DNA from: an uncultured Gemmatimonadales bacterium
GTDB taxonomy: Bacteria; Gemmatimonadota; Gemmatimonadetes; Longimicrobiales; RSA9
Assembly: GCA_963783305.1 (NCBI GenBank)
Contig: CAWAMW010000007.1
Span: forward strand, 128,001 to 192,000
Length of the DNA: 64,000 nt
Direction: 5' to 3'
In this document: one piece after another, positions 1 to 58,148 of the stretch
Position numbering within the stretch: position 1 is the stretch's first letter
Layout: every line of letters begins with the position of its first letter
The notes under the pieces: generated by a model
What the model was told of the DNA's origin: nothing
What the model saw: only the letters and a program-made list of their open reading frames with translations
The model's database searches: none
Program-made: the position numbers and the translations under genes

Positions 1-23
1 AGGGCGTTCCCGCGAGCTGAGGG

Positions 24-518
24 GTGATCCGCCACGAGCGTGCTCCCACGGATACCGGGCGCCCGGCCGGTGCCGGGGACGAGTACTGGATGCGGAGGGC
101 TCTTTCGCAGGCCCGGATCGCGGCCGCCGCCGACGAGGTGCCCGTAGGAGCCGTGGTGGTGGTCGATGACCAGCTCATCGCCGAAGCCCACAACCAGCCT
201 CGGTCCCTCCACGACCCCACCGCTCACGCCGAAGTGCTCGCACTTCGCTCCGCCGCCGCATCCCTCGGCCACTGGTGGCTGAACGGAGCTACGCTCTACG
301 TCACTCTGGAACCGTGCGCCATGTGCGCTGGCGCCACCGTGCTCTCCCGGATCGACCGGCTGGTCTACGCCGCACCCGACCCGAAAGCCGGCATGGCCGG
401 ATCCCTCGCCTGTATCCCGCAGGACCCCCGGCTGAACCACCACGTGGAGATCGTCGGCGGGGTGCTGGAGGATGAGGCCGCGGAGATGTTGAGGGAGTTT
501 TTCAGGGCGCGGCGATAG
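24..518 (+). CDS. tadA: tRNA adenosine(34) deaminase
   Basis: EVPVGAV, HDPTAHAE and LYVTLEPCAMC zinc-deaminase motifs, C-terminal FFRARR. Start codon uncertain. Confidence 0.93.
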   Translation: MIRHERAPTDTGRPAGAGDEYWMRRALSQARIAAAADEVPVGAVVVVDDQLIAEAHNQPRSLHDPTAHAEVLALRSAAASLGHWWLNGATLYVTLEPCAMCAGATVLSRIDRLVYAAPDPKAGMAGSLACIPQDPRLNHHVEIVGGVLEDEAAEMLREFFRARR

Positions 519-522
519 CGGA

Positions 523-610
523 AACACAGAACACAGAACACAGAACACAGGGCACAGGGCACAGGGCACAGGGCACAGGGCACAGGGCACAGGGCACAGG
601 GCACAGGGCA
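523..610. repeat. 7-bp tandem array (AACACAG)x4 then (GGCACAG)x8
   Basis: Read directly; begins 5 nt after the tadA stop. Confidence 0.97.
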
Positions 611-619
611 GGAGGCGCC

Positions 620-984
620 TTAGGGTCGGGTCCGGAGAGTGTGGCGGTAGGCGTGTAATTGGCGGTAAAGGTTTTCGTACTGGTCTCTGGTGGCGGCGAG
701 GAGTTGGGGGGGACCGCGGACGCGTTGTGGTTGATGATGCGGAGGCAGGCGATCACCTCCACCAGGGAGCCGAGGGCGAATTGGATGAAGCGTGCGGCAT
801 CCCGGCCGGTGCGGCGCTCCGTCGACTCCGCGATGTTGAGGACCACGCTGACGCTCGCCCGGCGAAGTTGCTCCGAGAGGTTGAATCGCTCGGCCGATGG
901 AAGCATCGCTGCCGTCTCATACGCGAGCGTCAGACACTCTTCAGCTCGTCTATAAACCCGGAGATCCTCGAACACGAACGCCAT
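620..984 (-). pseudogene. Four-helix-bundle protein (TIGR02436 / 23S rRNA IVS-protein / Avd-like), frameshifted at a C7 run
   Basis: MAFVFEDLRVY...ERFNLSEQLRRASVSVVLNIAES...FIQFALGSLVEV fits the family signature. One extra C in the G7/C7 run at 706-712 gives ...PQLLAATRDQYENLYRQLHAYRHTLRTRP* (121 aa, stop 622-620). Could be an intact gene with a homopolymer sequencing error. Confidence 0.8.
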
Positions 985-1080
985 GCCCCCAAACAAAGCC
1001 CCCCCGAGGGGCAACACCATGGCCAGTGGGGTCAGGACCCCCCCTCGAGCAGATCCGCTCGTCGTACAATTTGCGAACCA

Positions 1081-1150
1081 TGCCCTGTGAACTGGGCGCT
1101 TTAATCTGTAATCTGTGACCTGTAATCTGTGACCCGTAATCTGTGACCTT
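1081..1150. repeat. Degenerate 7-bp tandem array, 10 units (TGCCCTG TGAACTG GGCGCTT TAATCTG TAATCTG TGACCTG TAATCTG TGACCCG TAATCTG TGACCTT)
   Basis: Read directly; consensus TnnnCTG is the reverse complement of the 523-610 units. Confidence 0.9.
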
Positions 1151-1157
1151 ATAAGCC

Positions 1158-2096
1158 GTGACCTACCCGATCCTCGTATCCGCAGAAGTCGACCAGTTCC
1201 TTCGCAACGTGTCCGTCCCCGACGACATCGAGGTCCACATCCTCCAGCCGGGCGAAGAAGTGCCGGGGGGGGAGTACGTGGGGATCCTGCCGGTGCTCAC
1301 GCGGGCCATCGGTCCGGCGCAGCTCGACCGGCTGCCGGCGCTCAGGGTGGTGGCCAACATGGCGGTCGGCTACGACAACGTGGACGTCGCCGCGGCGCGC
1401 GAGCGGGGGGTCGAGGTGACCAATACCCCCGACGTTCTGACCGGCGCCACGGCCGAGCTGACGTGGGCGCTTATCCTCGCCACCGCCCGCAGGGTGGGGG
1501 AGGGGGAGCGTCTCGTCCGGGCCGGCGAATGGGAGGGGTGGGAACCGACGCAGCTCCTCGGGATGGGGTTGGCAGGAAAGACGCTCGGCATCGCGGGTGC
1601 GGGGCGGATCGGCCGCGAAGTGGGGCGGCGAGCCGCTGTCTTCGGCATGGAGGTGGCCTATTGGGGCCGTACAGGCCGGCCCGAATGGGAGCGGGAGACC
1701 GGCGCCCGGCCCACCTCGGACCTCGGGGAGCTCGCCGCCGTCGCCGACATCCTGTCCGTTCATCTCGCCTCCACTCCCCACACCCGCCGCATCATCGACG
1801 GCACCGTGCTGGATCGGATGAAGGAGAACGCGATCCTGGTCAACACCTCCCGCGGCGATGTCGTCGATGAGGGGGCGCTGATCGAGCGACTGGAGTCAGG
1901 ACGGCTGAGGGCGGGGCTGGACGTGTACGCGGCTGAGCCGAAGATCCCGGAGCGGCTGCGTCGGCTCCCGAACGTCGTGCTCCTGCCACACCTCGGCAGT
2001 GCCACGCGCGAGACCCGTCAGGAGATGTTCGACCTGGCCTGGCAGAACCTGCTGCGTTGTGTGCGCGGCGAGCCCCCGCTTACCCCGGTCGGCTGA
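1158..2096 (+). CDS. D-isomer-specific 2-hydroxyacid dehydrogenase (glyoxylate reductase / D-glycerate dehydrogenase type)
   Basis: AVGYDNVD, NTPDVLT, GAGRIG, LVNTSRGDVVDE, AGLDVY, PHLGSAT motifs. Confidence 0.9.
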   Translation: MTYPILVSAEVDQFLRNVSVPDDIEVHILQPGEEVPGGEYVGILPVLTRAIGPAQLDRLPALRVVANMAVGYDNVDVAAARERGVEVTNTPDVLTGATAELTWALILATARRVGEGERLVRAGEWEGWEPTQLLGMGLAGKTLGIAGAGRIGREVGRRAAVFGMEVAYWGRTGRPEWERETGARPTSDLGELAAVADILSVHLASTPHTRRIIDGTVLDRMKENAILVNTSRGDVVDEGALIERLESGRLRAGLDVYAAEPKIPERLRRLPNVVLLPHLGSATRETRQEMFDLAWQNLLRCVRGEPPLTPVG

Positions 2097-2191
2097 CGAG
2101 TATTGGCTCGGTTCCACTCGCACGGAGCTTGCACTGTATCCGGGCGAGAACGAGAGAAACCGGACCCCTCGAACGAGTCCTGGAGGACAAG

Positions 2192-2398
2192 ATGATCAGC
2201 AAGCTCATGAACATGATGGCATACCGTAAGGCCCCGAAGGCGACCTACCTCCTGAAGCACCCCGTGAAGGGTGGAAAGGCGCTGCTGGCCGCAAAGGGCG
2301 GCAAGGCGCTGTTCACCGGCCGGACCGGCCTTCTGCTGGGCGCGCTGGCCGCGGTCCCGGTGGGCCTGTGGGCCGCCAGCCAGGTAGGGAACGGCTGA
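2192..2398 (+). CDS. Small basic hypothetical protein (68 aa) with C-terminal hydrophobic segment
   Basis: GGAGGA SD at 2182-2187 before ATG 2192, GC-rich third positions, followed by a strong hairpin. Confidence 0.65.
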   Translation: MISKLMNMMAYRKAPKATYLLKHPVKGGKALLAAKGGKALFTGRTGLLLGALAAVPVGLWAASQVGNG

Positions 2399-2429
2399 TC
2401 CCCGGCTGGACCTGAACGATCCTGAAGCG

Positions 2430-2461
2430 GAAGAGCCGGCGCCCGAGGGCGCCGGCTCTTC
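2430..2461. terminator. Perfect hairpin between convergent genes (probable bidirectional terminator)
   Basis: GAAGAGCCGGCGCC-CGAG-GGCGCCGGCTCTTC. Confidence 0.7.
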
Positions 2462-2506
2462 TCTCATTCAGGCGTTCGCGGCATGACGCCGCGAGCCCCG
2501 CTCAGC

Positions 2507-3802
2507 CTAATTGCAGAGGCTGTCGGGTGTGTTTGTGTTCCGATCACACTCGGCGACCGGGATCGGCATGAACGTGTACTTCACCGGCTCGTTGAATCGC
2601 CGCAGGTCCGCGAAGCGAACGGCCTGGAGGTAGAGCTCGTAGCCGCGCTCCTCGAGGATGGCGTCGAGCATGGCCCCCGGCGTGGGGACGTCCGTTGTCG
2701 TGAGGGCGGGGAGACAGGCGACCGGCTCGGGCAGCGGGGAATCGCACTGGGTCCGAACCTCGTTCACCAGCGCGAGGGCCTGGGGGAGGTTCAGGTTGCC
2801 GTCACGGGCGTAGACCTCGGCCTGGATCAGCTTCATCTCGTCGGGAAGATAGACCGGGTACGAGTCGGACCGCTGCATGTAGCGGAGCACGTCATCGAGG
2901 GCCAGCTCACCGGCGCTCGGGCTCGTGATCTCCGCTTCCGCCACCCAGTAGGCCCAGCGCTGGTCCTCGGGGTCCGCATCGGCCCAGAAGGCCTCTTCCG
3001 CGCGCAGCGCGTAGGCGTTGCCCGACGCGTACCACATGTTCCAGAGCGGGTTGGCATCGAGCCCCTCGAAGCGGAACTCCGAAAAGACGGTCTGGTCCAC
3101 CCGCTGGGCGGCCGTCAGGGCGTCATCATAGCGCTCGGCCATGAGCGAGAAGCGCGCGATCATGGCGTCGATGCTGTTCTCAAGGTCGAAGCCGTTGGCC
3201 ACCACCTGGCTGTAGAACTCGGTCGGAGCCGGCGTATCCTGGAGGTGCTGTCGCGCCTCGTTCAACAGGTCCAGTGCCTCGTCGATGAGCGCCTCCCGGG
3301 ACACGAACTCCGGATTGGACAGGTTAGGCCCGACCATGATCGGCGCCCGCTCGTATATCTGGTAGAGCTGTCCGAAAGCGAGACCCTTGTAGAACTTGCC
3401 CAGCGCCGTCAGCCCGCTGGTGTAGCCGGCCGGCAGCCCCACATCGTCCGCGGCGTCGATCACCACGTTGGCGACGCGGATCACGTCATACATCCCGAAC
3501 CACGTGCCCGTGGAGGGCCCTTCCGTGCCGTCGATCTCGCGGCCCAGGTCCGCGTCCTGATAGCTCTCGAACGTCTCGGGGATCGCGCCGATCTCGTCCG
3601 TGATGAGCCCGACGGTGTAGACCGGGTCCACCAGGTTGTTGCTGTACACCGCCTGCAGCCCGATGGCGACCTGCCGGAGCCCATCGGCGGTGGTGACCGC
3701 CAGCTCCTCGCTCGGGTTGTTCGGGTCCGTGAGGTCCATGTCGCAGGCCCCGAGCGCGAGCGCGCCGAGCAGCGGCAGGGTCCAGATCGTCATTCTCTTC
3801 AT
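2507..3802 (-). CDS. SusD/RagB-family outer-membrane lipoprotein
   Basis: Lipobox LGAC after ATG 3802 (AGGAG SD); C-terminal ILEERGYELYLQAVRFADLRRF and PIPVAE motifs; directly downstream of a SusC gene. Confidence 0.88.
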   Translation of the reverse strand: MKRMTIWTLPLLGALALGACDMDLTDPNNPSEELAVTTADGLRQVAIGLQAVYSNNLVDPVYTVGLITDEIGAIPETFESYQDADLGREIDGTEGPSTGTWFGMYDVIRVANVVIDAADDVGLPAGYTSGLTALGKFYKGLAFGQLYQIYERAPIMVGPNLSNPEFVSREALIDEALDLLNEARQHLQDTPAPTEFYSQVVANGFDLENSIDAMIARFSLMAERYDDALTAAQRVDQTVFSEFRFEGLDANPLWNMWYASGNAYALRAEEAFWADADPEDQRWAYWVAEAEITSPSAGELALDDVLRYMQRSDSYPVYLPDEMKLIQAEVYARDGNLNLPQALALVNEVRTQCDSPLPEPVACLPALTTTDVPTPGAMLDAILEERGYELYLQAVRFADLRRFNEPVKYTFMPIPVAECDRNTNTPDSLCN

Positions 3803-3833
3803 GCCCTTAGCTCCTGTCGTAGTCATCGGTCGC

Positions 3834-6752
3834 TCAGTAGTCCAGTCGGATTCCGACCGACAGCTCGCGCGAATTCGGGAAGGCCGCGAAGTCGGTACCG
3901 CGCTCCACGGTGCTGAGTCCGAACATGTTGATCTCGGGGTCGTAGCCGCTGTAGTCGGTCCAGGTGATCAGGTTGCGGCCCATGACCTCGAGCTGCATGC
4001 CGCCCGCGCCGATCCGGTCGGAGAGGCTCGCCGGGACCTTCCAGCGGAGGGAGGCCTCGCGCAGCTTCACGAAGCTCGCGTCTTCCAGGTACGACTCCCA
4101 GATCGAGATATCACGCGACAGAGCCGCCGCGGTCATGTCGCCCCGCAGCACGGCGTCGTACTTGGCGCCGGCGTCGAAGATGTCCATGATCCGCTGGCTC
4201 TGGTTCCACAGCTCGTGGCCGAACTGACCGTCGAACAGGAGCCCGAAGGTGATGGCGTCGCCGATCTCGAAGTCGTTGCGCAGCGATGCGGCGAAGTCGG
4301 GCCACGGGTTCCCGACGAACTGGCGATCGCCCTGCACCGGCAGGTTGTCGCCATCGTAGACGATGTTGCCCTGCTCATCGCGCTCGTACCCGATCATGTA
4401 GTGGACACCGAGGGGCTGACCTTCCTCCACCCGGTTCGTGTACCCCACGTTGAACGGGTCGCCTTCAAGCTTCTCCACCACGTTCTCGTTCTTGGAGAAG
4501 ATGAGAGCCGACGACCAGCGGAATCCAGACCGCTCCATGTTGACCGTGTTGAGCTCGGCCTCAATGCCCCAGTTGCTCAGGGCGCCCACGTTGTCGAGGA
4601 TCGAGCCCACGCCCGAGCTCGGCGCGAAAACCCGCGAGAGCAGCAGGTCGTCGGTGTACTGGTCGTAGTACGTGAGGCTCAGGCCGAGCCGGTCGTGGAG
4701 CGCGCCCAGGTCCAGGCCGAACTCGTACTCCCGCTGCCGCTCCGGCCGCAGCTCCGGGTTGCCCGCCCGCGAGAGCGGCACCAGGCCGAGCCGAGCGTTG
4801 TTGATGGCCGTGCCGTAGCGTGAGGACCGCGCGTACGCGTCACCCAGCGACGGCTGGTTACCCGCGTAGCCTAGGGCGCCACGGATGCGGAACTCGCTGA
4901 ACAGGTCGCCCAGCGGCGAGTCCTGGAAGTACGTCTCCTCGGAGACCACATAGCTGGCGCCCACCTTCGGGTAGAGCTGCCAGCGCTCGTCCGGACCGAA
5001 CGTGGAGGACGCGTCCCAGCGGAGCGCGCCCGTCAGGTACAGGGCGTTGCGCCAGTCGATCTGCTGCTGGGCGAAGTAGCCCAGCGTCACCAGCTCGGTC
5101 TGCGACTGCGACGCCGCCTGGACGGCGCCGCGGACGAACCGGGTCAGCGGCGTGATGTCCGTGGCCGACGCGTTCAGCTGGTCCACCACCTGGTACGTGT
5201 GGTTCATCCCCGCCGAGGTGGTCATCTGGAGCGAGCTCGCCGGGTGCCAGACGTAGTTCCCGACCAGGTCGTTGTTGATGAGCATATTGTCGCGGTTCGC
5301 CGAGACGGCGCGGCCGGTGGGCGCGGCCGTGGAGCCGCGGGGAATGGACTGCCGGGTCTCCATGGAGTAGGTGTCGTAGCCCAGCCGGTACTCCATGGTC
5401 AGATCCATCAGCGGGTTGCTGCGCGCCTGGAACGATCCGACGAACCGGTCCACCGTCTGGGGCAGCCGCCAGTCACGCGTGACCACCAGCGGGTTCGGGA
5501 ATACGGTGCTCTGCACCACGTAGTCGCCGGTCTCCGGGTTGACCGCACCCAGGTCGACCGTGGTGGGTGTGAACATGATCGCCGTCAGCAGGCCGCCCTC
5601 GCCCTGCTCACCGTTGATGATCAGGTCCGTGTTGCTCTGGATGTAGTTGGCGCCCACCGAGAGGCTCAGCCAGCGGCCAAAGCTCTGGTCCAGGTTGAGC
5701 CGCGCGTTCAGCTTGTTGTGCGCGGACCCGATCAGAATCCCTTCCTGGTCCGTGTACGACGTCGAGATGTAGTAGCGCGTGTCGCCGGCCCCACCGGAGA
5801 CCGAGACGTTCATGTCCTGGCCCCAGCCGTCGCGGAAGATCAGGTCCTGGTGGTCGAACCGCTTCACCGTGTTGCCGGCCTCGTCCACCGGCGTCATGGC
5901 GAACTGCGTGCGGTGCTCCAGGTCGCTGCGCGTGGCCCGGATCGCCGCCTGCACCCGCGTATCACCCGCCTGACCGCGCTTCGTGAAGATCTGGACCACG
6001 CCGTTGTTGGCGCGCGAGCCATACAGCGCCGCGGCGGCCGCACCCTTCAGCACCTCGACCCGCGCGATGTCGTTCGGCGACAGGTCGGCCAGACGGTTGA
6101 TCGGGTTCGACCGGTTCCCGACGTTGATCTGCTGAGAAGCGTTGTTGTCGATGATCACGCCATCCACGATGTAGAGCGGCTCCGCTCCGCCCGTGATCGA
6201 GCTCGTGCCCCGCAGCCGGACGGAGATCCCGCCGCCGGGCATCCCGGAATTCGACGTGATCACGGCGCCCGCGATCTTACCCTGGAGCGCCTGGTCGATG
6301 GACGTGGCCGGCGAGGTCTCGATCTGGTCGGCCTGAACCGTCGACACCGAGTTGCCCATAGCGCGGCGGGTTGTGGGCCCGGCCGTTCCGGTGACCACGA
6401 TCTCCTCGAGCTCGAGCGCCGACTCCTCCATGCGCACCTCGGGGACCATGACCGTGGCATCGCCGCCCAGCACCACCGTCTCGGCCGCGCTGCGGCGGCC
6501 GATGTAGGAGAACGCCAGGTCGTAGTTCCCCGGCTCCAGGTTGGCCCGGATCATGTACCGGCCATTGGAGTCCGTTATGGCCCCGAGGCTGGTTCCGCGG
6601 ATCGCCACCTGCGCTCCGGCCAGACCCTCACCGGTAGCGTCGGCCACCACCGTGCCCTGGATCGTGTACGGGGTCTGTGCGCTGAGAGGCGCCGCTCCCG
6701 CTCCGACCAGCAGCGCCATCAACAGCGAGAACCGTCGAAAACGACTAGTCAT
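3834..6752 (-). CDS. SusC/RagA-family TonB-dependent receptor
   Basis: Signal peptide, EEIVVTG, ALQGKIAG, VRLRGTSS, EPLYIVDG, VEVLKGAAAAALYGSRANNGVVQIFTKRG plug signature, C-terminal YSGYDPE. Start set at ATG 6752 (AGGAG SD). Confidence 0.93.
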   Translation of the reverse strand: MTSRFRRFSLLMALLVGAGAAPLSAQTPYTIQGTVVADATGEGLAGAQVAIRGTSLGAITDSNGRYMIRANLEPGNYDLAFSYIGRRSAAETVVLGGDATVMVPEVRMEESALELEEIVVTGTAGPTTRRAMGNSVSTVQADQIETSPATSIDQALQGKIAGAVITSNSGMPGGGISVRLRGTSSITGGAEPLYIVDGVIIDNNASQQINVGNRSNPINRLADLSPNDIARVEVLKGAAAAALYGSRANNGVVQIFTKRGQAGDTRVQAAIRATRSDLEHRTQFAMTPVDEAGNTVKRFDHQDLIFRDGWGQDMNVSVSGGAGDTRYYISTSYTDQEGILIGSAHNKLNARLNLDQSFGRWLSLSVGANYIQSNTDLIINGEQGEGGLLTAIMFTPTTVDLGAVNPETGDYVVQSTVFPNPLVVTRDWRLPQTVDRFVGSFQARSNPLMDLTMEYRLGYDTYSMETRQSIPRGSTAAPTGRAVSANRDNMLINNDLVGNYVWHPASSLQMTTSAGMNHTYQVVDQLNASATDITPLTRFVRGAVQAASQSQTELVTLGYFAQQQIDWRNALYLTGALRWDASSTFGPDERWQLYPKVGASYVVSEETYFQDSPLGDLFSEFRIRGALGYAGNQPSLGDAYARSSRYGTAINNARLGLVPLSRAGNPELRPERQREYEFGLDLGALHDRLGLSLTYYDQYTDDLLLSRVFAPSSGVGSILDNVGALSNWGIEAELNTVNMERSGFRWSSALIFSKNENVVEKLEGDPFNVGYTNRVEEGQPLGVHYMIGYERDEQGNIVYDGDNLPVQGDRQFVGNPWPDFAASLRNDFEIGDAITFGLLFDGQFGHELWNQSQRIMDIFDAGAKYDAVLRGDMTAAALSRDISIWESYLEDASFVKLREASLRWKVPASLSDRIGAGGMQLEVMGRNLITWTDYSGYDPEINMFGLSTVERGTDFAAFPNSRELSVGIRLDY

Positions 6753-6964
6753 ACCTGCAACTCCTGCGGATTGGGTCATCATGGGGTTGGAAGCCCGGAT
6801 AGCCGAACGGTATTCTCCGAACGGCCGGAACACAATGTCAGATGTGTGAACGACCGGGATCGTTGTCACGATCCGTCCGTAGTCGGAACCGTGAACGAGG
6901 TGTGCGGCGTCTTCCCGGAAGCTGTTTCGGCCGGAGGAAATCGGCCGCCGGGCGTTTTCGCCCG

Positions 6965-8611
6965 TTACGTGGGACCGGCGTCGGGCGCGTCGCCAACCGG
7001 TTTCCCGAAGAACCGGAGCACGCCGTACAGGATCACGACCCCGGCCAGGAGGGAGATGCCCGGGTTCAATCCATATGCGGTGGGGATGTCACCGACGAGC
7101 ATGGCCACCAATGCCACCGTGATGGCGTACGGCAGCTGGGTGCGCACGTGGTCCACGTGGTCGCAGGCGGAGGCCATGGAGCTGAGGACCGTGGTGTCGG
7201 AGATAGGGGAGCAGTGATCGCCGAAGATGGATCCGGCCATGATGGAGCTCACCACCCCGAGGAGCACGGAGTAGTGTGTGCCCTCATCGAACCCGATGCC
7301 GGCGCCCATGGCGACGGCGAGGGGAATGACCACGGGGAATAGGATGGACATGGTCCCCCAGCTGGTGCCGGTGGCGAAGGAGATGATCGCCGCGGTGAGG
7401 AAGACGAGGACGGGGAGCAGGTGGATGGGCAGCGCGTCGCTCAGGAGGGAAGAGAGGTATTCGCCGGTTCCGAGGGCTTCGGTCGCCCCGCCCAGACCCC
7501 AGGCCAGGACGAGGATGATCATGGCGAGCATCATCGCCTGCATGCCGCCCACCCACGCTTCGACGGTCTGCTGAAGGGTGAGGATCCGCTGCACCGCGAC
7601 CATCACGATGGCCGTCAGGGAGCCGATGAACGACGCCCAGATGAGCGCCTTGAACGGATCGGCCGCGCCGGCGATGTCCCGCAGCGATGCGCCGGCGCCG
7701 GCCGCGATCCGACCGGTGATGTAGATCCCGGTGAGCGCCACCAGGATGGTGATGAGGACCGGCACGGCGGCGTTGTACCAGCGGTGGGGCTTGTCGGCCG
7801 GCGCCTCCATGAGGCCGCTGCCGGTGTCCGCGGCCAGCTGGGCGCCGGGCCGGTGCAGCCCCCCGCCCGTCACCGCCCGCTCCTCGGCCCCGAGCATGGG
7901 GCCGAACTCCCGCCGCATCAGGACGGTCATGAGCACGAAGAGGAGCGCCAGGATCGGGTAGAACAGGTACGGGATCGAGTGGAGGAAGATATTGAACGGG
8001 TTCTGCGCCGCGGCGATCAGGCTGGCGGACTCGCCGGGATCGCTGACGTTGCCGGCGGCGGCGGTGAGGGAGTCGCCGATCAGGGTGATCTCGAATCCGA
8101 CCCACGTGGAGATCAGGGCGATGGCCGCCATGGGCGCAGCGGTGGAATCGACGATATAGGCGAGCTTCTCCCGCGACACCTTCAGCCGATCCGTGATGGG
8201 CCGCATGGTGTTTCCAACGATCAGGGTGTTGGCGTAGTCGTCGAAGAAAATGGCGATGCCCGACAACCAGGTGAAGAACTGGCCGCGGCGCCGGCTGGTG
8301 GCGAGCGGTCGCATCGCCTCGACCATGCCGAGCGTCCCGCCGCTCCGGGACATGACGCCCACCATCCCGCCCAGGAGCAGGCTGAACATGACGATGGCGA
8401 TGTGGTCTGCGTTCCCGGAGAGGGCCTGGAGGGCGAAGCGGTCCACGCTCATGAGGGTGGCCGTGAGCGGATTCCAGTCGGCCAGGAAGAGGGCGCCGAG
8501 CCAGATCCCTGCGAAGAGGGAGACAACGACTTCCCGCGTGATCAGCGCCAGGAGGATGGCGGCGATGGGGGGCAGGAGGCTGAGCCAGCCCGGGTCGACG
8601 ACGGCGTCCAT
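6965..8611 (-). CDS. Na+/H+ antiporter NhaC-family membrane transporter
   Basis: FFDDYANTLIVG, SREKLAYIVDSTAAP, FATGTSWGT, GDHCSPISDTTVLSS, HVRTQLPYA. Confidence 0.88.
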   Translation of the reverse strand: MDAVVDPGWLSLLPPIAAILLALITREVVVSLFAGIWLGALFLADWNPLTATLMSVDRFALQALSGNADHIAIVMFSLLLGGMVGVMSRSGGTLGMVEAMRPLATSRRRGQFFTWLSGIAIFFDDYANTLIVGNTMRPITDRLKVSREKLAYIVDSTAAPMAAIALISTWVGFEITLIGDSLTAAAGNVSDPGESASLIAAAQNPFNIFLHSIPYLFYPILALLFVLMTVLMRREFGPMLGAEERAVTGGGLHRPGAQLAADTGSGLMEAPADKPHRWYNAAVPVLITILVALTGIYITGRIAAGAGASLRDIAGAADPFKALIWASFIGSLTAIVMVAVQRILTLQQTVEAWVGGMQAMMLAMIILVLAWGLGGATEALGTGEYLSSLLSDALPIHLLPVLVFLTAAIISFATGTSWGTMSILFPVVIPLAVAMGAGIGFDEGTHYSVLLGVVSSIMAGSIFGDHCSPISDTTVLSSMASACDHVDHVRTQLPYAITVALVAMLVGDIPTAYGLNPGISLLAGVVILYGVLRFFGKPVGDAPDAGPT

Positions 8612-13182: not shown

Positions 13183-13203
13183 GGTGTTCGCCCTTCGGCC
13201 TCA

Positions 13204-13323
13204 CGGAGGGCGGCCTGCGGCCGCGGGGGGGTCGCTTCGCTCCCGGAGGGCGGCCTGCGGCCGCGGGGGGGTCGCTTCGCTCCCGGAGGGCGGCCTGCGG
13301 CCGCGGGGGGGTCGCTTCGCTCC
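13204..13323. repeat. Three perfect tandem copies of a 40-bp unit
   Basis: CGGAGGGCGGCCTGCGGCCGCGGGGGGGTCGCTTCGCTCC at 13204, 13244 and 13284. Confidence 0.95.
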
Positions 13324-18086: not shown

Positions 18087-18169
18087 CGCCGCGGGGGGCG
18101 GCTTCGCCGCGGGGGGCGGCTTCGCCGCGGGGGGCGGCTTCGCCGCGGGGGGCGGCTTCGCCGCGGGGG
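18087..18169. repeat. 18-bp tandem repeat CGCCGCGGGGGGCGGCTT, about 4.6 copies
   Basis: Read directly downstream of the 18072 stop. Confidence 0.95.
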
Positions 18170-18351
18170 ACGTGAGCGCGGACCTTGCGAGTGGGGGGTG
18201 TGGTAGGTAGGAGGTTGGAACGAGGTCGCGGGCCGCAGGCCCGCTCCCCCGACGCGCGCAGCGCGGCGCCCCCGCGAGCCAGCGGCTCGCTCCCCCGGCG
18301 CGCGTAGCGCGACGCCCCCGCGGCCGAAGGCCGCTTAACGAGGAGGCAGGA

Positions 18352-50830: not shown

Positions 50831-50936
50831 AGATCGATAGCGAGGCCGAAGGCCAAAGCGTTCTATAGCGAGCGCAGCGAAGCGTTCGACAGGGAGCGCA
50901 GCGACCGTTCGACAGGGAGCGCAGCGACCGTTCGCC
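50831..50936. repeat. Dispersed ~105-bp intergenic repeat, copy A
   Basis: Aligns end to end with 58044-58148 by eye; internal ~23-24-bp subunits. Confidence 0.9.
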
Positions 50937-58043: not shown

Positions 58044-58148
58044 AGATCGATAGCGAGGCCGAAGGCCGAGCGTTCGATAGCGAGCGAAGCGACGCGTTCC
58101 ATAGGGAGCGCAGCGACCGTTCGATAGCGAGCGCAGCGAGCGGTCGCC
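58044..58148. repeat. Dispersed ~105-bp intergenic repeat, copy B
   Basis: Near-identical to 50831-50936, same orientation. Confidence 0.9.

Follow-up and report, generated by a model that had tools for sequence, protein, structure and literature searches.

The junction between tadA and a D-2-hydroxyacid dehydrogenase gene in the 64,000-nt stretch of DNA analysed here (the window) holds a cassette of ~630 bases, made up of two complementary arms of heptamer repeats, a four-helix-bundle gene and that gene's predicted promoter (Table 1). We give a probability of about 40% to the reading that this cassette is a selfish passenger of natural transformation, which would spread by means of host recombination instead of a transposase. 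The observed basis of this reading is the insertion itself, the inverted arms that pair with each other, a design that recurs across phyla, a shared promoter motif, and searches in which neither RNase III nor reverse transcriptase was found.

Table 1 Features of the cassette and of the genes on its two sides, in window coordinates.
Feature	Position	Strand	Details
tadA	24..518	+	host gene, left flank; stop TAG 516-518; NCBIfam NF008113 187.6 bits, cut-off 150
Left arm (3' arm of the cargo gene)	523..610	+	12 heptamers at 523-606, partial unit to 610
Four-helix-bundle gene (PF05635/TIGR02436)	620..984	-	start ATG 984; stop TAA 620-622; frame change in G7 run 706-712
Predicted -10 (TTGTTT)	991..996	-	ATG at leaderless spacing; position inferred from motif geometry
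Predicted promoter motif GACCC-N5-GCCATG-N5-GCCCC	1007..1033	-	49 nt upstream of ATG, as at comM
Right arm (5' arm of the cargo gene)	1081..1150	+	10 heptamers in register; core TAATCTG/TGACCTG
D-2-hydroxyacid dehydrogenase	1158..2096	+	host gene, right flank; PF02826/PF00389

The initial annotation of the window described a self-contained element, with an antisense gene in the gap between co-oriented tadA and dehydrogenase genes. Pfam and NCBIfam profile matches agree with both neighbours, and the gene runs from 984 to 620 on the minus strand. Empty tadA-dehydrogenase sites, which the annotation proposed to look for in relatives, do exist; the junction contains neither the gene nor the arrays in 5/5 same-genus genomes with a tadA orthologue, and the tadA stop and the dehydrogenase start overlap directly at all five of these loci. 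Among the relatives' loci, the dehydrogenase is near tadA in 11/29 and the four-helix gene in 0/29, and the closest homologues in relatives (69% and 71% identical) are located on contigs other than that of tadA. These comparisons support a self-contained element with pairing arms that was recently inserted where the two host genes used to overlap. In place of the ancestral ATGA overlap, the cassette ends have ATAG and GTGA with only a degenerate short duplication, and comparison with the empty junctions of relatives revealed no clear target-site duplication at the cassette ends. The statement that no transposase, integrase or reverse transcriptase lies nearby holds for the transposase by eye in the open reading frames of positions 1-8000, and for the reverse transcriptase throughout the source genome (PF00078, 0 matches at 96% completeness). 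The cassette itself does not encode a transposase as IS or REP-RAYT elements do; the PF05635 gene is its sole cargo ORF.

Several features were noted around the locus. A lexA gene is located directly upstream of tadA, outside the window (source genome C7:127349-128020), behind a tRNA-like gene seen by eye; the lexA-tadA adjacency occurs in 24/29 relatives' loci, and a second lexA is present at C12:78755-79378. On the other side, a small membrane-protein-like ORF without Pfam or NCBIfam match follows the dehydrogenase on its 3' side (window 2192-2398), and a gene with a similar N-terminus is also found 3' of tadA in locus L019.

Profile searches with the encoded protein, suggested as a check in the annotation, place it in the four-helix family (PF05635, 73.3 bits with a cut-off of 33.8; TIGR02436, 65.6 with a cut-off of 24). 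Homologues align in two frames on account of the frame change in the G7 run, while the ENA protein P0002, which comes from another assembly, matches both gene parts in one frame. An intact allele thus exists, and the frame change here may be an assembly error or a strain variant; a metagenome scan with P0002 gave no match. For the intact protein, the predicted structure (pLDDT 92) matches 2GSC (Xcc0516) with a TM-score of 0.83 and Avd (4DWL) with a TM-score of 0.72 (E 3.9e-3).

The left arm begins 5 nt past the tadA stop and is built of 4 AACACAG and 8 GGCACAG units, and the right arm ends 7 nt before the dehydrogenase start. The numbers of heptamers given in the annotation, 12 on the left and 10 on the right, are correct, with one right unit (GGCGCTT, 1095-1101) being off-consensus and the tight core comprising 7 units (1102-1150). 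The two arrays are mutually inverted, with 71% complementarity over 65 nt, and their inner ends are exact complements as claimed (CACAGGGCA at 602-610 and TGCCCTGTG at 1081-1089). Folding of the whole region gave z = -2.86 for the + strand and -2.17 for the - strand (0/20 shuffles as good). The arm duplexes reach -75.8 and -73.9 kcal/mol, compared with -52 +/- 5 kcal/mol for shuffled arms, and 0/300 shuffles per strand were as good. Hence the arms pair better than shuffled controls on both strands, the comparison that the annotation had set for its claim, and they pair equally well on either strand.

The repeats themselves are widespread in the host. The source genome contains 38 period-7 arrays, of which 28 belong to the TnnnCTG family and nearly all are without a four-helix gene; in a Markov control of contig C2 we found 0 arrays versus 10 in the actual sequence. 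The description of the arrays as bounding a cassette stands with respect to the inverted arms, but repeats of this kind are found elsewhere in the genome as well. Gene-less arrays show a weak trend toward outward orientation (18 versus 8). Gene-less inverted doublets of TnnnCTG heptamers with short loops are present at C2:310611-310783 and C17:293174-293387, and a similar doublet lies directly after tadA at locus L028 of genome G040. In the window, REP-like GC-rich tandem repeats with periods of 18-40 nt occur at 13200-13323, 18087-18324, 50859-50934 and 58070-58146; by eye, they resemble the flanks of some four-helix paralogues.

When the flanks of homologues were examined for 7-bp periodicity and inversion, as the annotation had proposed, both were enriched. 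Period-7 arrays are present on both flanks in 11/24 loci at the family level, 21/28 at the phylum level, 44/76 from GTDB (many phyla) and 19/39 from viral contigs, where the samples are best-scoring matches instead of random draws, kin are not independent, and short-flank loci (5 family, 2 phylum, 4 GTDB, 1 viral) are left out. Single control flanks, taken from other genes at these loci, have this period in 34/337 cases, and periods other than 7 around four-helix homologues reach at most 3. Out of 116 arm pairs, 110 are inverted. The 5' arm pairs first or second best of 41 with its own 3' arm in 97/113 cases, three duplicate arm pairs having been excluded from this test. These results bear on the explanation that the arrays are neutral slippage products at gene junctions and that only chance placed the gene between two of them. 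Such an origin would agree with the 28 TnnnCTG arrays in the genome, nearly all gene-less, and with the heptamer repeats near stops and starts, often in inverted pairs, that are known in Xanthomonas and Nostoc (PMC4692102). However, it does not account for the strong enrichment, inversion and cognate pairing around the family across phyla or for the relatives in which both the gene and the arrays are missing from the junction. We regard it as highly improbable and as largely refuted by the flank enrichment and cognate pairing tests.

From one genome to another, the arms differ freely in sequence. In relative G005, the 69%-identical homologue has arms of CAGCCVT, a unit that matches 168 times there and 0 times in the source genome; the heptamer unit of the source genome matches G005 at 8 places and four other relatives at none. 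The arms in these two genomes thus belong to the heptamer family that dominates in the host. At the same time, similar proteins tend toward similar arm units (Mantel r = 0.22, 94 loci, 0/2000 permutations). Co-transfer of the arms with the gene and exchange with resident arrays both seem to occur.

The annotation suggested that the periodic stem could loop the gene out of the host transcript, and this leads to a reading in which the arms act mainly in RNA, looping or cutting the cassette out of the operon transcript, which would render the insertion harmless and keep the coupling between tadA and the dehydrogenase. In the predicted + strand fold, the arms are paired and the tadA stop is brought near the dehydrogenase start; moreover, the ancestral genes overlapped, and the outer arm ends are ≤25 nt from a host stop codon in 68/86 cases. 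A further parallel is the Coxiella intervening sequence (IVS), which encodes a protein of the same family, carries GACAGAT heptamers upstream of its ORF and is cut by RNase III, as described in PMC4990558. Against this, an RNase III gene (PF14622) was found in 0/61 genomes of the order, the source genome and complete genomes included, and was not found in 27/28 further genomes of the phylum that carry the four-helix family, in a search whose controls matched in 8/14. Excision in the manner of 23S rRNA intervening sequences therefore appears to be unavailable in this order. No Rfam match was found in window positions 1-2500. As a side observation, the failure to find RNase III suggests that rRNAs of this lineage may mature by a different pathway.

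The pairing data likewise do not point to one RNA strand. Pairing is better on one strand in 47 loci and on the other in 51 (51 versus 42 with DNA parameters), G-U pairs number 127/3051 and 129/3050 on the two strands, and an RNA-strand asymmetry is rejected with either parameter set. With rough ORF picking, 35 of 72 loci are co-oriented with their host context, 11 are antisense as at the window locus, and 26 lie between convergent or divergent genes, where no shared transcript would need repair; viral loci were excluded from these orientation counts and from the distances to stop codons. In the 35 co-oriented and 11 antisense loci, neither energy nor G-U content is biased toward the host strand. 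Stop codons as a rule for the arm units were also considered and rejected, with 0.32-0.38 per unit on all four strands. Looping-out of the gene as the main function of the stem is not supported by these results, and we consider the RNA reading rather unlikely, though it ranks ahead of the other alternatives. A hairpin that forms in DNA and can be used on both strands would produce such strand symmetry; it is also expected from gene conversion between the arms or from recent slippage.

The annotation described the element as self-contained, which holds, but it missed a predicted internal promoter that links the gene to a DNA-uptake regulon. The motif was first seen upstream of family-level four-helix homologues and then scanned genome-wide, where it reads GTCCC-N5-GCYATK-N5-GCCCC followed by A-N3-T at the -10 position, with the start codon often 48-50 nt from the first G. 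It may be described as three half-sites at ~11-bp spacing plus a -10, often leaderless, in a regulon of ~35-40 sites. The window site scores 13.4 bits when the matrix is trained on 28 other sites of the genome, and 18.5 bits when it is trained solely on the comM promoters of 26 relatives. The -10 here is weak, as TTGTTT does not have the A that is present in 23/28 regulon sites. In the window, 998-1012 (-) also resembles a terminator hairpin with a T-rich tail, which overlaps the spacer and the -10 of the predicted promoter. The start chosen by the gene caller, an ATG at 1020, lies within the motif, and the same 12-residue N-terminal extension in P0003 and P0018 suggests the same promoter site in those sequences.

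In the source genome, 35 sites score at least 20 bits (28 of them matrix training sites), compared with 0-2 for shuffled matrices; examples are C16:644064, C6:170286, C2:738962 and C7:199447. The genes downstream, identified from two partly overlapping sets of 20 and 18 proteins, comprise comM, yraN, comF, pilB/gspE, two ssb, two recQ, recN and recX, as well as genes for DUF559/AbiEi and GxxExxY proteins, two RAYT-like and two IS1595-like proteins and an integron-like integrase; a pilin-like gene with the motif was recognised by eye only. The strongest copies are at genes for two small predicted secreted cysteine-rich peptides of ~70 aa (L309/L310; C2:257569, 254923). The GxxExxY gene (L328, C12:141200-142300) carries the same motif together with inverted repeats of ~9-nt period, a design like that of the four-helix cassette. 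Among family relatives, the motif lies upstream of comM in 26/28 and upstream of tadA in 0/15, after exclusion of matches without an N-terminus or upstream DNA. The comM-derived matrix detects 20/55 family four-helix genes, versus 1/55 on the opposite strand and a background of 25/2085 in the source genome. The cassette gene is thus predicted to have its own leaderless promoter in common with DNA-uptake and recombination genes.

The motif is limited in its lineage and in its genes. It was found at 0/150 four-helix loci outside the family; a motif trained on the four-helix upstream regions of other families recovered only the arms. A related comM motif is present at the same distance in other families of the class with modest enrichment (p = 0.002), while the reverse comparison is not significant; the motif is present in families f1 and f2 and weak in f3. 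No site was found at dprA or recA (best scores 2.1 and 6.4) or at either lexA, and a site of 11.0 bits located 2.2 kb upstream of comEC is at another gene's start. The motif defines an apparently undescribed DNA-uptake regulon in this order; with no site found at dprA, recA or lexA and the comEC site lying at another gene's start, the regulon could be a wider one that responds to DNA stress or foreign DNA.

As for its regulator, LexA is rejected, with no motif at either lexA or at recA; a TTCGG-N6-TTCGG repeat seen by eye upstream of recA (C16) and of the second lexA (C12) is a candidate direct-repeat LexA box. PafBC, which has a similar -26/-10 geometry (PMC8635444), was attractive through a tandem WYL pair resembling pafB-pafC at C12:142047-144475, between two motif sites and adjoining the GxxExxY gene. 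This candidate is rejected by genome co-occurrence: the motif matches 35-61 times in near-complete f2 genomes without a PafB match, and 1-2 times in five f3 genomes that do have PafB. The tandem WYL pair is patchy in the order (30/91). By eye, the upstream motif at first resembled the sigma-54 consensus, and this reading was dropped in view of the downstream -10 and the leaderless geometry on the gene strand. A sigma-70 scan gave 0 sites.

Since two RAYT-like, two IS1595-like and an integron-like integrase gene carry the same promoter motif, the cassette could instead be a non-autonomous element moved in trans by such a co-regulated single-strand enzyme (RAYT or integron-like integrase), which would recognise the folded arms. 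REP-associated and integron-type enzymes usually act on folded single-stranded DNA, and the gene-less inverted doublets resemble REPINs. However, the RAYT-like genes are below the family cut-off (67.6 and 68.8 versus 80) and by eye have an end sequence of their own that is not heptameric, and freely varying arms are unlike a fixed cleavage motif. We consider mobilisation in trans unlikely.

The distribution of the family bears on a further alternative, in which the protein is an accessory factor of DNA uptake or stress that is useful to the host, the arrays are its genome-wide binding sites and its own arms are autoregulatory. The four-helix family is present in 98/151 genomes of the phylum, its fold matches Avd, a nucleic-acid-binding cofactor, and the source genome has six paralogues and a degenerate seventh, with the regulon motif at 4/6 and at the seventh. 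On the other hand, position and copy number are sporadic, with 1-13 copies where the family is present and carriers numbering 0/16 among f2 genomes, which do have the motif; the gene is inserted into a previously overlapping junction; and the other paralogues in the source genome have repeats of other periods. A host function of this kind is improbable, to about the same degree as mobilisation in trans. Among these paralogues, L002-L006 show flanking repeats with periods of 6-7, about 18, 20 and 23 nt by eye, mostly inverted, and the degenerate seventh gene lies in pieces at C11:35669-35886 with a 23-bit promoter motif upstream.

In our preferred reading, passage by natural transformation, the gene would be switched on together with DNA uptake. 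Transformation imports single strands, and ComM and YraN act at the D-loop (PMC13663708). The arms may fold the cargo into a hairpin in the single-stranded donor DNA, whichever strand is taken up; such a hairpin would hide the heterology, bring the homologous flanks together and ease integration into an empty allele. The arms could also provide homology to resident gene-less heptamer arrays; this would open up new landing sites, and loss of a cassette would leave arrays in place. The Avd-like protein might bind the arms or single-stranded DNA and thereby aid the integration step.

Several observations stand against this reading. The promoter motif is lineage-limited, the -10 is weak and there is no clear target-site duplication. 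Among family loci, the motif and both arms are negatively associated, the motif being present in 2/16 loci with both arms versus 18/39 without both arms (p = 0.03); the two occur together at the window locus, at its closest homologue (L038) and at metagenome loci L097 and L098. The arms also travel with the gene, as the Mantel correlation indicates, and the match between arms and host rests on two genomes.

A wider proposal is tentative, and we hold it with less confidence than the reading of this cassette. Heptamer-armed four-helix cassettes may form an undescribed, cross-phylum class of selfish elements without a recombinase, which would take over the competence promoter of the host and spread by natural transformation, with the single-stranded donor DNA folded into a hairpin to which an Avd-like protein binds. 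On this view, the long-unexplained heptamer repeats of bacterial genomes would be remnants of such elements, and the 23S rRNA IVS would be an example of their insertion. In a search of mostly open-access literature without supplements, no paper on the general cassette or on a competence link was found, and only the Coxiella IVS paper was relevant. What is new here is the predicted promoter shared with comM, yraN, comF, pilB, ssb, recQ and recN, the failure to find RNase III in the order and the strand-symmetric pairing of the arms. The proposal ties together the function of PF05635, the origin of intergenic heptamer repeats and the mobility of ORF-bearing rRNA intervening sequences. The promoter in common with comM, comF and yraN points to the probable time of expression, and, with no RNase III found, the obvious explanation at the RNA level falls away for this lineage. 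Transformation is usually seen as purging mobile DNA; if the proposal is true, hairpin arms would let elements without an enzyme benefit from it.

Comparison with known systems places the cassette near several of them. As in competence regulons, one motif precedes uptake and recombination genes (comM in 26/28 relatives, yraN, comF, pilB, the pilin-like gene, ssb, recQ and recN). Unlike in those regulons, dprA and recA do not have a site, the nearest candidate for comEC is the 2.2-kb distant site described above, many nuclease and mobile genes carry the motif, and no match to a known motif or regulator was found. With REP/REPIN-RAYT systems and MITEs, the cassette shares the arrangement of a gene between inverted repeats and the presence of gene-less doublets across the genome; it differs in that its cargo is not an HUH or DDE enzyme, its tandem heptamer arms differ between genomes and it shows no clear target duplication. 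The model predicts the same four-helix fold as that of Avd of diversity-generating retroelements (TM 0.72 to 4DWL), and homology to Avd has been noted (PMC10053308). A template/variable repeat pair was not seen at the locus, and the cassette is not a diversity-generating retroelement, an IS or a RAYT element.

The closest architecture is that of the ORF-bearing 23S rRNA intervening sequences (S23p; Coxiella burnetii, Leptospira), with which the cassette shares the protein family, terminal inverted repeats that form a stem, seen here in the complementarity, folding and shuffle results, and a sporadic distribution. The GACAGAT heptamers of the Coxiella IVS (PMC4990558) compare with CACAGAT/TACAGAT on the gene strand of the window. 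In contrast to these sequences, the cassette is located between tadA and the dehydrogenase, in a lexA-tadA-dehydrogenase protein operon instead of an rRNA gene, has its own predicted promoter, and occurs in a lineage in which RNase III was found neither in the source genome nor in 60 further genomes of this order. It is IVS-like in architecture but without the defining rRNA location and RNase III excision. Intergenic heptamer repeats have been described as GGGAATC in Xanthomonas, GGGGA(C/T)T in Nostoc and TAACTGA in Beggiatoaceae (PMC4692102, PMC4679880), and a term search of the main texts of these two papers showed no link of the heptamers to the four-helix/S23 family. The window arrays resemble them in their period of 7, intergenic location, proximity to stop and start codons and, in some cases, arrangement in inverted pairs (PMC4692102, PMC4679880), whereas those in the window form the two arms of a gene cassette.
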